Shown piece after piece: positions 7,747 to 11,326 of a stretch of DNA of 53,159 bases; positions within the stretch are counted from its first letter, which is position 1; every line of letters starts with the position of its first letter. This DNA comes from a virus. Lineage: Duplodnaviria; Heunggongvirae; Uroviricota; Caudoviricetes. The DNA is taken from IMG/VR virus record IMGVR_UViG_2711768002_000013. One strand, 5' to 3'. The position numbers and the translations under genes are program-made. The notes under the pieces are model-generated. The model saw only the letters and a program-made list of their open reading frames with translations. It did no database searches and was not told the origin of the DNA.

Positions 7747-8184
7747 TTAAGAGGCTTTTTGTTTTTTCTTTCGTGCTAGCTCTTCGTAAATTGCATTGTA
7801 CTTCTGTTTTTTCTCCTCAAGAGTTTTTAAAAGTTCATCTGTCTCACTGTCAGGGAGCTCGTCCAGAAGGTCAATGATGATTTTTTGTCTTGGATTTAAC
7901 TCCTGATAGAAACGTACCTGTCCACTTTCTTCTGTATCCTCTCCCAAAAGATAGGTTGGTGTTGTTCCAATGAGTGTTGCTAATTCCCTTAATTTCTCTC
8001 GGCGAGGAATTGTTTCGCCATTAAACCATTTGCTAACCGCTTTTGGTGTTAATTTCATTCGACGGGCAATTTCTGCCTGCCTTCCATGTTGTTCATAACC
8101 AGCGTTTTCACAGGCTAGCGCAAGCCTACTGGCGAACTCTTTACGCGCTTTATCTTCATGAACCATAAGTTCAATGATATTCAC
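7747..8184 (-). CDS. Prophage repressor, XRE-family HTH, no peptidase domain (RacR-like)
   Basis: HTH segment GRQAEIARRMKLTPKAVSKWFNGETIP; divergent from a cro-like gene; no S24 autocleavage domain; start uncertain (GTG 8184 or ATG 8166). Confidence 0.75.
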   Translation of the reverse strand: MNIIELMVHEDKARKEFASRLALACENAGYEQHGRQAEIARRMKLTPKAVSKWFNGETIPRREKLRELATLIGTTPTYLLGEDTEESGQVRFYQELNPRQKIIIDLLDELPDSETDELLKTLEEKKQKYNAIYEELARKKKQKAS

Positions 8185-8245
8185 TCTTGAATGTACTGTC
8201 AGTTCTGTTATAGCATGTACTCAAAGTTCACATTGTGAGGGTGAT
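8178..8245. promoter_or_regulatory. Divergent promoter/operator region between repressor and cro-like gene (OR-like)
   Basis: ATTCA-CTCT-TGAAT inverted repeat at 8178..8191; direct ATGTACT repeats at 8191..8197 and 8215..8221; near-palindrome TCACATTGTGA before the ydaS Shine-Dalgarno. Confidence 0.45.
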
Positions 8246-8500
8246 ATGAACCAGAAAACACTTGAAGATGTAATCAAAACTGTTCGCGTTTCTGTTGTGG
8301 CCGACGTTTGTGGTGTCAGCCAAAGAGCAATCTACAAATGGATGGATAACGGAAAATTGCCTCGCACAGAATATACCGGCGAAACAAATTACGCTGAAAA
8401 AATCGCTCATGCATCAAACGGATTATTTTCTGCTGATGTAATTTTAACTATTGGCAGAAATAAAACTACTACGAAAAAGCTGATGGGAGTTGATTCATGA
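8246..8500 (+). CDS. ydaS: Cro-like HTH regulator
   Basis: 84 aa from MNQKTLEDVIKTVRVSVVADVCGVSQRAIYKWMDNGKLP (HTH); GAGGG Shine-Dalgarno before ATG 8246; divergent from the repressor gene. Confidence 0.7.
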   Translation: MNQKTLEDVIKTVRVSVVADVCGVSQRAIYKWMDNGKLPRTEYTGETNYAEKIAHASNGLFSADVILTIGRNKTTTKKLMGVDS

Positions 8501-8919
8501 AAATCAAGCATGAGCACATCGAGTCAGTGTTGTTAGCCCTGGCAGCCGAAAAAGGGCAGGCATGGGTAGCCAATGCCATTACTGAAGAATATCTGCGCCA
8601 GGGGGGCGGCGAATTGCCCCTGGTACCAGGCAAGGACTGGAATAATCAGCAGAATATCTATCACCGTTGGTTGAAAGGTGAAACGAAAACGCAAAGAGAA
8701 AAAATTCAGAAGCTGATCCCAGCAATTCTGGCAATCCTTCCGCGCGAGCTGCGTCACCGACTCTGCATCTTCGATACCCTGGAACGCCGTGCATTACTGG
8801 CGGCGCAGGAAGCGTTAAGTACGGCAATTGATGCGCATGATGATGCAGTCCAAGCCGTTTACCGGAAAGCGCATTTCAGCGGCGGCGGGTCTTCCGACGA
8901 TTCTGTCATTGTTCATTAA
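8497..8919 (+). CDS. ydaT: CII-like regulator / toxic protein YdaT
   Basis: 140-aa ORF overlapping the ydaS stop; size and position as Rac YdaT. Confidence 0.65.
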   Translation: MKIKHEHIESVLLALAAEKGQAWVANAITEEYLRQGGGELPLVPGKDWNNQQNIYHRWLKGETKTQREKIQKLIPAILAILPRELRHRLCIFDTLERRALLAAQEALSTAIDAHDDAVQAVYRKAHFSGGGSSDDSVIVH

Positions 8920-8931
8920 GCAAAAGTTTCC

Positions 8932-9789
8932 ATGCTGTTTGTGCTTATTCTAAGCCACCGGGCAGCATCATACGGGGCAATTATGGCCGCATTACCATAC
9001 ATGCAACTGTACATAGCTGATTACCTGGCTGACACCATGCATTTGTCAGCAGAGGAGCATGGTGCGTATTTGTTGCTGATGTTCAATTACTGGCAAACAG
9101 GAAAGCCAATACCTAAAAACAGGCTGGCAAAAATTGCCCGTCTGACTAACGAGCGATGGGCTGATGTTGAACCATCCTTGCAGGAGTTTTTTTGCGATAA
9201 CGGCGAGGAATGGGTGCATCTTCGGATTGAGGAAGATCTGGCATCAGTCAGGGAAAAATTAACCAAAAAATCAGCCGCAGGAAAAGCATCTGTTCAGGCC
9301 AGAAGAAGCAGAAAGGAAGCAGATGTTCAAACAAAACAAGAGAGAAATTTAACAGGTGTTCAAACAGATGTTGAAGTGGTGTTTGAACATGATGTCAACA
9401 CAAAGGCAACTAATAAAGATACAGATAAAGATCTAAAAACAGATCCCCCCCTAAATCCCCCCCGGGGGAATCGAGGTGTCAAAAAGTTTGACCCTCTGGA
9501 TATTGCTTTGCCGAACTGGATTTCTGTCTCGCTTTGGCGTGAGTGGGTTGAATTTCGCCAGGCATTGCGAAAACCGATTCGAACGGAGCAGGGCGCTAAC
9601 GGGGCGATACGGGAGCTGGAAAAATTCCGCCAGCAGGGTTTTTCACCTGAGCAGGTGATTCGACACAGCATCGCCAATGAATACCAGGGCTTGTTCGCGC
9701 CGAAAGGTGTTCGACCTGAGACGTTACTCCGACAGGTTAACACCGTCTCGTTACCGGATAGTGCGATCCCGCCAGGCTTCAGGGGGTAA
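8932..9789 (+). CDS. ydaU: Replication initiation protein (DUF1376 N-terminal domain), YdaU-like
   Basis: 285 aa; N-terminal YIADYLADTMHLSAEEHGAYLLLMFNYW motif region; contains an internal iteron cluster; followed by the dnaC-like gene; start could be the internal Met. Confidence 0.7.
   Translation: MLFVLILSHRAASYGAIMAALPYMQLYIADYLADTMHLSAEEHGAYLLLMFNYWQTGKPIPKNRLAKIARLTNERWADVEPSLQEFFCDNGEEWVHLRIEEDLASVREKLTKKSAAGKASVQARRSRKEADVQTKQERNLTGVQTDVEVVFEHDVNTKATNKDTDKDLKTDPPLNPPRGNRGVKKFDPLDIALPNWISVSLWREWVEFRQALRKPIRTEQGANGAIRELEKFRQQGFSPEQVIRHSIANEYQGLFAPKGVRPETLLRQVNTVSLPDSAIPPGFRG
9320..9401. repeat. Iteron-like repeat cluster, candidate replication origin inside ydaU
   Basis: TGTTCAAACA at 9324..9333 and 9358..9367 (direct) and 9380..9389 (inverted), with degenerate copies GATGTTGAAG and GATGTCAACA, followed by an AT-rich stretch at 9405..9440. 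Confidence 0.5.
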
Positions 9790-9795
9790 CTGACC

Positions 9796-10542
9796 ATGAA
9801 AAATATTGCGACAGGCGACGTTCTTGAACGTATCCGCAGACTGGCCCCGTCACATGTAACCGCGCCATTCAAGACGGTAGCGGAGTGGCGCGAGTGGCAA
9901 CTTTCCGAAGGCCAGAAACGTTGTGAGGAGATCAACCGTCAGAATCGTCAGTTGCGGGTGGAAAAAATTCTGAATCGCTCTGGCATCCAGCCATTGCACC
10001 GCAAATGCTCGTTTTCGAATTACCAGGTGCAGAACGAAGCGCAGCGATACGCGTTGAGTCAGGCGAAATCCATCGCTGATGAACTGATGACCGGGTGTAC
10101 AAATTTTGCGTTCAGCGGAAAACCTGGTACCGGGAAGAACCACTTAGCGGCAGCTATCGGGAATCGCCTGCTGAAAGACGGTCAGACAGTGATTGTGGTT
10201 ACCGTGGCTGATGTTATGAGTGCCCTGCACGCCAGCTATGACGATGGGCAGTCAGGCGAAAAATTTTTGCGGGAACTATGCGAAGTGGATCTGCTGGTTC
10301 TTGATGAAATTGGCATTCAGCGCGAGACGAAAAACGAGCAGGTGGTGCTGCACCAGATTGTTGATCGCCGGACAGCGTCGATGCGCAGCGTGGGGATGCT
10401 GACAAACCTGAACTATGAGGCCATGAAAACATTGCTCGGCGAGCGGATTATGGATCGCATGACCATGAACGGCGGGCGATGGGTGAATTTTAACTGGGAG
10501 AGCTGGCGTCCGAATGTCGTCCAGCCAGGAATTGAGAAGTAA
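9796..10542 (+). CDS. ydaV: DnaC-like helicase loader (AAA+ ATPase)
   Basis: 248 aa; Walker [16 protein letters not shown], Walker [10 protein letters not shown]; directly downstream of the initiator gene. Confidence 0.85.
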
Positions 10543-10564
10543 TTTTTACCGGGAGGAAATTTTT

Positions 10565-11326
10565 ATGGAGACTGTTTTTGACGCACTGAAAGCAATGGGA
10601 AAAGCCACATCCATAGAACTTGCTGCGCGACTTGATATCAGTCGTGAAGAAGTGCTGAACGAACTATGGGAACTGAAAAAAGCTGGTTTCGTTGATAAAA
10701 GCGCGTACACCTGGCGTGTGGCTGATAACAACGTTCAGCAGGAACAGCCAATGCAGGCAGAACTGCCGGAAGAAACCACCACGGCAACTGTAGTGAAAAT
10801 CTCAGAGTGCGATTTAACCGCGACGATTGAACAACGCGGACCACAAACGGCGGATGAACTGGCTACGCTGTTCGGTACAACATCCCGCAAAGTTGCTTCA
10901 ACGCTGGCAATGGCAATCAGCAAAGGACGCCTGATTCGCGTAAACCAGAACAGTAAATTTCGTTACTGCATGCCGGGCGATAATTTACCAGCAGAGCCGA
11001 AAGCTGCATCGGTAGCGGAAACTGATGGTAAAGCCTTTCCTCAGCCAGCCGGTGTTGCGTTACCAGTACAGGAAGCGGCAACACAGGAAGATATTAAAAC
11101 AGAAACTGTGGCGGACATTGTGCAGTCGCTGCCATCGTTTACTGAAACGCAAGCGGATGACCTAGTTTTACCATCGCTGCATATGGCAAACCGCGAACTG
11201 CGTCGGGCGAAAAATCATGTCCAGAAGTGGGAGCGAGTCTGCGCCGCGCTGCGGGAGCTGAACAAGCACCGGGATATTGTCCGACAGATTGTCGATTCCT
11301 CCAGTCGTATTGTGTCGGAAAAGTGA
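10565..11326 (+). CDS. ydaW: YdaW-like protein with N-terminal winged-helix-like segment
   Basis: ATG 10565 preceded by GGGAGGAAA; begins [30 protein letters not shown]. Confidence 0.5.

Follow-up and report, generated by a model that had tools for sequence, protein, structure and literature searches.

In phage lambda and the Shiga toxin (Stx) phages, the replication origin, ori-lambda, is located centrally in the initiator gene, separating the sequences that encode a DNA-binding N-terminal domain and a loader-interacting C-terminal domain, and it is with the classical O/P logic of these phages, as set out in PMC7466680, that we compare the element described here. This element is a cluster of short repeats (iterons) followed by an A+T-rich tract inside ydaU, a putative replication initiator gene that a Rac-type lambdoid prophage of Escherichia coli carries in its early-right operon; the whole stretch of 53,159 bases that was analysed (IMG/VR virus record IMGVR_UViG_2711768002_000013) is referred to as the window. 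Based on sequence comparison, we put at roughly 80% the probability that positions 9324–9446, with a weak extension to 9284, represent the replication origin of this Rac-type prophage and the nucleotide-level counterpart of oriJ, the origin described for Rac.

Genetic evidence for oriJ dates back to the late 1970s. Its map position, which we take to be in the early-right region of Rac between recE and trkG, includes ydaU, which sits between these two genes in the K-12 genome (NC_000913). Rac has been described as having an active origin, oriJ (PMC3945230), and PMC11014345 cites a study of oriJ plasmids (its reference 62). In the accessible literature, no nucleotide-level description of oriJ was found, a search with the iteron sequence returned unrelated primers only, and a paper on the Stx-phage replication region mentioned neither Rac nor iterons; likewise, no rep_origin feature is annotated in Rac of RefSeq NC_000913. 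The 951 bases around the repeats were 100% identical to several E. coli chromosomes, such as that of O26:H11 strain 11368, and RefSeq labels the genes there as ydaT, ydaU ('YdaU family protein') and ydaV ('ATP-binding protein'). Positions 9200–9520 differ by one base from ydaU of the cryptic prophage Rac of K-12 MG1655, and the order racR, ydaS, ydaT, ydaU, ydaV, ydaW is that of K-12 Rac. These iterons most probably correspond to oriJ.

The element resembles ori-lambda in its position between the two domains of the initiator, in its array of dyad-symmetric sites with a tract downstream whose top strand is A-rich, and in the gene order cro/cII, initiator, helicase loader. The annotated lambda iterons occupy nt 349–433 of O, and the array described here occupies nt 342–420 of ydaU, counted from the ATG at 8983. 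In both systems the proximal iterons are the best conserved, matching the finding that two iterons adjoining the AT-rich tract suffice for lambda in vitro (PMC7466680), and extra distal iterons appear to have been added by in-frame duplication, as in the Stx phages (PMC7466680). The parts themselves are different. YdaU is not homologous to lambda O: its only Pfam match was DUF1376, in the N-terminal domain, with none to the lambda O family, and its C-terminus is DnaT-like. The loader is DnaC/IstB-like instead of lambda P, the iterons are 10 bp long at 11–12-bp spacing compared with 18 bp at approximately 20–24 bp in lambda, and the unwinding tract contains GATC and 13-mer-like units. By analogy, the element would work like ori-lambda, though YdaU is no member of the O family.

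Two other groups of replication systems were compared with this locus. The iteron origins of theta plasmids (pSC101, P1, F, R6K and RK2) share with it short, helix-phased sites next to an AT-rich tract, 13-mer-like units in that tract and a winged-helix initiator, which for YdaU is predicted and whose binding is proposed. Unlike these plasmids, in which DnaA boxes lie beside the iterons and the origin lies outside rep, the locus has its array inside the initiator coding sequence, no DnaA box in the gene, much shorter iterons, an initiator with a recruiting domain of the DnaT type and, directly downstream, a dedicated loader gene. Primosome adaptors of the DnaD, DnaB (Bsu) and DnaT type are recruited by DnaA or PriA and have no iteron recognition of their own, whereas the N-terminal domain of YdaU co-varies with a specific repeat array.

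The iteron array and the adjacent tract in ydaU

An earlier inspection of the letters alone (the sequence-only reading) had described three perfect 10-mers, two direct and one inverted, together with degenerate copies, inside the replication initiator gene. The present analysis confirmed this cluster, with all three perfect copies within 66 bp, and placed it in the part of ydaU that encodes the linker between the two domains of the protein. The three exact copies of TGTTCAAACA (Table 1) are the only ones in the window, compared with 0.15 expected, and none of 100 shuffled sequences reached three. Copies with up to two mismatches were not enriched across the window (62 found, 68.6 expected), and therefore the signal is a local cluster. 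Because the 10-mer has dyad symmetry (TGTT-NN-AACA), only the central dinucleotide distinguishes its 'direct' from its 'inverted' copies, and the dyad pattern TGTTNNAACA was confined to the same three places in the 53 kb.

In addition to the perfect copies, partial copies or half-sites were detected at two positions within the array (Table 1) and, in a weaker form, at 9291–9300 (TGTTCAGGCC), and a longer repeat, AAnCAGaTGTTcAA, was found at 9284, 9317, 9350 and 9362 (spacings of 33, 33 and 12). The starts of the sites are 33, 33, 12, 11 and 12 bp apart, corresponding to three helical turns or one, with the proximal sites separated by approximately one turn. The 33-nt units are in frame and resemble tandem duplications; the distal unit (9284–9316) probably arose by in-frame duplication. 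The conserved core of the array, 9357–9402, is the counterpart of an array found family-wide, CGTTCAACG..CGTTGA..CCGTTTGAAC..CAACG, with 11-bp phasing.

The A+T-rich stretch reported to follow the repeats was also present, with a GC content of 0.28 over the 60 nt at 9380–9439 and of 0.25 over 40 nt at 9400. The least stable 40-mer of the region 8400–10600 is 9407–9446 (dG of −43.3 against a window mean of −53.9, standard deviation 4.7), which is among the most unstable 1.2% of the window. The element therefore runs about 45 bp past the end coordinate given in the sequence-only reading (9320–9401), to approximately 9446. The top strand of the tract is A-rich, and its bottom strand contains GATCTGTTTTTAG and GATCTTTATCTGT, which resemble the oriC 13-mer, in the form we take as its consensus, with two or three mismatches; two GATC sites are also present. 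In relatives, the homologous sequence is the AATAAAGATACAGATACAGATCTAAAAGA tract, in which codons are frozen. Right at the junction of the modules that follows, 9443–9468, the coding sequence holds a 12-nt direct repeat in the arrangement ATCCCCCCC TAA ATCCCCCCC GGGGG. Some E. coli prophage copies (L009 and L010) differ in this unit, which may be prone to slippage or copy-number change.

Other signals were searched for in the same region. No DnaA box (TTATNCACA, up to one mismatch) was found within 8932–9789, and a DnaA-box-dependent origin was rejected for this gene. No promoter-like site was found and terminator-like sites were weak, with none at the repeats, excluding an internal promoter or convincing terminator there. 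The TGTT-NN-AACA motif was absent from the immunity region, and the repeats were accordingly rejected as an operator shared with that region. Finally, the inverted copies might form an mRNA hairpin controlling the translation or stability of ydaU–ydaV, given that the predicted fold of RNA 9310–9450 pairs 9323–9333 with 9380–9390 (minimum free energy −25.8 kcal/mol, z = −2.6). Such pairing is automatic for any inverted repeat, no Rfam family matched, so that a known RNA family was rejected, and relatives have tandem palindromic units instead of one conserved stem. A hairpin would, moreover, leave the direct phased copies and the codon-frozen (GATACA)n/A-rich tract unexplained, and we regard this account as very improbable.

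Codon constraint and repeat arrays among DUF1376 genes

Evidence for constraint on the DNA was obtained from a codon alignment of 26 diverged DUF1376 genes, in which columns with a conserved, degenerate amino acid were scored and the domain columns of the same 26 sequences served as the internal control. In the 81 columns of the domain and basic stretch, the top-codon fraction was 0.56 and the normalised entropy 0.79, compared with 0.95 and 0.10 in the 21 columns of the iterons and DT tract (Mann–Whitney p = 8e-11; p-values are inexact, the sequences being related). The iteron codons (R = CGT, S = TCA, T = ACG, V = GTT, P = CCG) and those of the tract (D = GAT, T = ACA) were the same in 92–100% of sequences. 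This freezing of synonymous codons over the iterons and the (GATACA)n tract indicates selection on the DNA, not on the peptide. Between the iteron cores, which are invariant in these sequences, the spacer nucleotides vary freely, a pattern that speaks for a binding footprint and against the recent exchange of a block.

The repeats could also be viewed as a repeated peptide motif (xVQT or STGV) in a disordered linker, with no function at the DNA level, since both the 33-nt and the 12-nt units keep the reading frame and their translations are similar short peptides, for example DVQT and GVQT. One copy is inverted, though, and encodes unrelated residues (VFEH), the amino acids at spacer positions vary freely, and synonymous codons are frozen over the repeats while being scrambled in the strongly conserved domain. 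We rejected a peptide repeat on the basis of the inverted copy and the codon test, and consider it highly unlikely.

A second frozen patch was detected in alignment columns 58–68 (top-codon fraction 0.90 vs 0.56, p = 7e-5), corresponding to 9148–9180 of the window. This segment, which in the family reads AACGACCGTTGG..GTTGAA..TCGTTG, contains GCTGATGTTGAACCA, and a further similar copy, GCTGATGTTCAATTA, lies at 9075–9089, also in the coding sequence of the N-terminal domain. The segment 9148–9180 may be an auxiliary initiator site approximately 200 bp upstream of the main array.

Related genes were then collected from other phages. By tblastn, the DUF1376 domain was found in 31 phage records, 12 of which, from other genera, were examined in detail. 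In these 12 phages the DUF1376 gene follows cro/cII-like regulators, and in seven of them (L085, L086, L087, L088, L090, L093 and L094) the next gene is annotated as of a replication type, namely, DnaC-like or P-like loader, DnaA-like domain protein, P-loop NTPase or DnaB-type helicase. Immediately downstream of the domain, most of the 12 have short repeats of their own, with a simple or A-rich tract beyond them. Examples of these repeats are CGTTCAACG or CGTTGAACG in Pseudomonas phages, three copies of TTCAACGGGCGTT in a Methylophilaceae phage, and the GCAAATGCA type in phages of Rhizobium, Acetobacter and Acinetobacter. In Pseudomonas phage PfAn1 (L086, 2501–3188), the DUF1376 gene is unannotated in GenBank and is an intact ORF (open reading frame) with iterons and a (GATACA)n tract.

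A scan of species-representative genomes with a 7-sequence alignment as the query (a 13-sequence alignment was too diverse) identified 80 loci at 100–41% identity. Many genera have in common the stretch ...AACGnnCGTTCAACGnnCGTTGAnnnnCCGTTTGAAC...CAACnAATAAAGATACAGATACAGATCTAAAAGA..., with half-sites at 11-bp phasing and unrelated C-terminal modules; it was present in Citrobacter, Enterobacter, Kluyvera, Klebsiella, Pantoea, Serratia, Rahnella, Pseudomonas, Methylococcaceae, Propionivibrio and Frateuria. Positions 9357–9446 of the window are the TGTT-type version of this family array, and between genera the DNA of the origin region varies less than the protein proposed to read it.

To locate the repeats relative to the domain, we counted 8-mers recurring within 60 nt in 88 DUF1376 loci and binned them by distance from the domain start; this profile replaced an earlier statistic of the single best cluster per locus (17/80), which was tie-biased towards upstream positions. 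The recurring fraction was 0.060 at 300–399 nt (67 of the 88 loci having at least one) and 0.036 at 400–499 nt (56/88), compared with about 0.005 in background bins (approximately 20/88). Short repeats are hence enriched about 10-fold at 300–500 nt, often with 11-bp phasing, and a secondary peak was observed at 100–199 nt, consistent with the candidate auxiliary site. The genes downstream fell into clusters of DnaC-like (17), P-like (7), DnaB (4) and SF2 helicase (3) products, and these clusters were associated with the type of C-terminal module (adjusted Rand index, ARI, 0.51).

Some loci depart from this arrangement. In five prophages of Pseudomonas, Kosakonia and Phytobacter (L114, L115, L122, L123 and L125), the DUF1376 N-terminal domain is followed by another insert, without an in-gene repeat array; this insert (GYVYFI..KIGYSKNPW.RLSELR) resembles a T5orf172/GIY-YIG-like domain. 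In Rhizobiales isolate AFS057535 (L162), six copies of CGTGCCAGC at an exact spacing of 18 nt were found at about 900–1000, which is 1,000–1,100 nt upstream of the DUF1376 match, and this unrelated array accounts for the background spike in the −1100 to −1001 bin of the profile.

Domains of YdaU and natural mosaics

The ydaU gene is annotated from position 8932, and the sequence MAALPYMQLY begins at the ATG at 8983. The latter is the likelier start because every homologue, annotated phage genes among them, starts with this sequence; moreover, GGGG at 8974–8977 precedes this ATG, and no Shine–Dalgarno-like sequence was found upstream of 8932. The true start is probably the ATG at 8983, position 8932 being too far upstream. 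The N-terminal domain matched Pfam DUF1376 (PF07120) over amino acids 22–104 of the 285-aa ORF (E = 2.7e-26, 92.2 bits against a cut-off of 30.1). Its structure model, built with an alignment whose homologue set consisted mostly of gene fragments, is a winged helix resembling the DNA-binding domains of initiators, and among prokaryotic initiators the best-fitting structural match was the plasmid initiator RepA_N 4pta. At the C-terminal end, a phmmer search against the PDB (Protein Data Bank) matched the DnaT chains 2ru8 and 9zbt over amino acids 210–285 (E = 0.003–0.01), and the tail VNTVSxPDSxIPPGFRG is common to the C-terminal 75 residues of YdaU and DnaT. The PHROG labels for YdaU include 'primosomal protein' and 'replication initiation O-like', the latter match being confined to amino acids 112–259 (linker and C-terminal part).

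A sensitive DNA search of phage records indicated that ydaU is a mosaic, with a junction right after the AT-rich tract. Rac-SA53 has in common with the window nt 1–507 of the gene, covering the N-terminal domain and the iterons; its C-terminal domain is different (Pfam DnaT), and the next gene is lambda-P-like. Conversely, 666R9 and Rac-442/2 have in common nt 485–858, covering the C-terminal domain, together with the DnaC-like ydaV. The N-terminal domain of these two phages is unrelated, with no Pfam match and the PHROG label 'replication initiation protein', and they carry another repeat, GGTAACGC/GCGTTAC, in about five copies of both orientations at the same linker position, followed by an A-rich tract and then the same CCCCCTAAATCCCCC junction. 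From these mosaics, the repeats travel with the N-terminal domain and the loader with the C-terminal domain. This correlation in natural recombinants suggests that iteron specificity resides in the N-terminal domain and loader specificity in the C-terminal domain.

The same mosaics raise the question of whether the conserved stretch is instead a linker at a module boundary, acting as a homology patch for recombination between N- and C-terminal modules. The homology breakpoints of Rac-SA53 and 666R9 (gene nt 485–507) fall right after the stretch, E. coli population variants, taken from a scan of viral contigs with the N-terminal domain that returned only 96–100% identical copies and was used for such variants only, switch sequence at approximately 9423 or 9446, and the tract is nearly identical across genera with unrelated flanking C-terminal modules. 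A homology patch does not account for the distribution of the invariant positions, which are dyad sites at 11-bp phasing among freely varying spacers, as in a protein-binding footprint, nor for the different repeats that distant family members have at the same place, nor for the unrelated N-terminal domain that brings its own repeats. As an alternative to an origin, the linker is improbable. The two roles are compatible, since the lambda origin is also a module boundary, and the boundary is best regarded as an additional property of the site.

It is similarly improbable that the repeats are sites for another protein or purpose (autoregulation of ydaU–ydaV, a host factor or a partition-like function), with the origin elsewhere in the prophage. 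In favour of such a role, a protein other than YdaU may bind the repeats, and another short conserved 9-mer triplet occurs in ydaW. Against it, the motif occurs nowhere else in the 53 kb, the immunity region included, it co-varies with the N-terminal domain of the initiator and not with neighbouring regulators, and it is followed by an unwinding-prone tract in a gene without a DnaA box.

The features of the locus are listed in Table 1. Rightward transcription through the origin presumably comes from the immunity and early region upstream. Downstream, the product of ydaV matched Pfam IstB_IS21 (E = 1.7e-20) and Bac_DnaA (E = 7e-9) as well as PHROG 50, 'DnaC-like helicase loader'. The ydaW ORF overlaps the 3' end of ydaV by 29 nt (10514–10542) in a different frame. 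Within ydaW, at 10985–11068, the 9-mer TTACCAGCA and near-copies occur three times in alternating orientation (10985 +, 11023 −, 11060 +) with a spacing of approximately 37 nt, and this triplet is kept in Rac-SA53 (L002) and 666R9 (L003).

Table 1. Positions of the genes and sequence elements at the ydaU locus (window coordinates)
Feature	Position	Strand	Remarks
Upstream immunity/early region	7747–8919		Pfam HTH_3, HTH_17, YdaT_toxin; K-12 Rac gene order
racR-like repressor	7747–8184	−	
ydaS-like helix-turn-helix (HTH) gene	8174–8500	+	
ydaT	8497–8919	+	
ydaU ORF, mechanical and RefSeq	8932–9789		285 aa
ydaU, putative replication initiator	8983–9789	+	RefSeq YdaU family protein; Pfam DUF1376
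DUF1376 N-terminal domain	8995–9243	+	Predicted winged helix; proposed iteron-binding
Candidate auxiliary iteron-like site	9148–9180		GCTGATGTTGAACCA at 9160–9174; repeat family D2; within N-domain coding sequence
Weak distal repeat unit	9284–9316		TGTTCAGGCC at 9291–9300; first of three 33-nt units
Iteron array	9324–9402		Perfect: 9324–9333 (+), 9357–9366 (+), 9380–9389 (−); half/degenerate: 9369–9378 (TGTTGAAGTG), 9392–9401 (TGTCAACACA)
A+T-rich tract, proposed DNA-unwinding element	9403–9446		Lowest GC; least stable 40-mer of module
Module boundary	9443–9468		ATCCCCCCCTAAATCCCCCCCGGGGG; two C7 runs; direct repeat D10; recombination junctions
C-terminal DnaT-like domain	9559–9789	+	Proposed helicase/loader-recruiting module
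ydaV, DnaC/IstB-like AAA+ helicase loader	9796–10542	+	
ydaW	10514–11326		DUF1627; weak HTH-type matches

A proposed initiation scheme and the DUF1376 family

The sequence-only reading had taken the cluster to be the prophage replication origin. At the sequence level, this assignment is supported by the position of the array between the two domains, the unstable tract, the mosaics, the repeats across the family and the frozen codons. In the scheme that we propose, loss of the RacR repressor would allow rightward transcription to express ydaS, ydaT, ydaU and ydaV and to cross the origin, giving a transcriptional activation. YdaU would bind the TGTT-NN-AACA iterons via its winged-helix DUF1376 domain, and the spacing of approximately one turn would set the bound molecules on one face of the DNA, in a nucleoprotein complex similar to the O-some. 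Stress from this complex would open the adjacent tract at 9403–9446, and the DnaT-like C-terminal domain of YdaU would recruit both host DnaB and the DnaC-like loader YdaV. We infer each of these steps, namely, YdaU as the binder, unwinding at the tract, recruitment by the C-terminal domain and transcriptional activation.

Several observations weigh against the identification of an origin. No demonstration of DNA binding by YdaU was found in the accessible literature, and Rac has been called 'defective for replication' (PMC11014345). At 10 bp the iterons are short, those of lambda having 18 bp, and there are just three perfect copies. Of these three, the distal copy at 9324 is altered to TATTCAAAAA in Rac-SA53, in which the two proximal perfect copies are intact, and carries a C-to-A change in 7 of 80 E. 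coli prophage copies, suggesting that it may be dispensable. In addition, the compared loci are phylogenetically related, so that the p-values overstate their independence.

An origin of this kind is textbook, representing the lambda paradigm with non-homologous parts, and changes no concept; the generalisation to the DUF1376 family may be new. We lean slightly towards the view that DUF1376/YdaU proteins form a large, unrecognised class of phage and prophage replication initiators, with a winged-helix N-terminal domain, exchangeable recruiting C-terminal modules and an origin that would always be embedded in the gene just after the domain. In this proposed class, gamma- and betaproteobacterial loci (Enterobacteriaceae, Pseudomonas, Methylococcaceae and others) may use CGTT-S-AACG or TGTT-NN-AACA dyads at 11-bp phasing, and many alphaproteobacterial loci may use GCAATGC-type iterons, with related forms in Acinetobacter phages. 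In each case, a simple-sequence unwinding tract, such as (GATACA)n, may follow the iterons.

For Rac, the coordinates given here would make oriJ, which is not annotated at the nucleotide level in the reference genome, directly testable, with the segment plus ydaU and ydaV as a candidate minimal replicon. The segment would also provide a marker for judging the replication capacity of Rac-like prophages in pathogenic E. coli. Within a gene, frozen synonymous codons may serve as a general sign that the coding sequence harbours a DNA element. The pattern seen across the family is an argument for DUF1376 as the domain with which these initiators bind their origins, and it indicates that many prophage origins can be located from sequence alone. 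If true, this would establish what a domain of unknown function does and provide a rule for locating the origins of hundreds of prophages.

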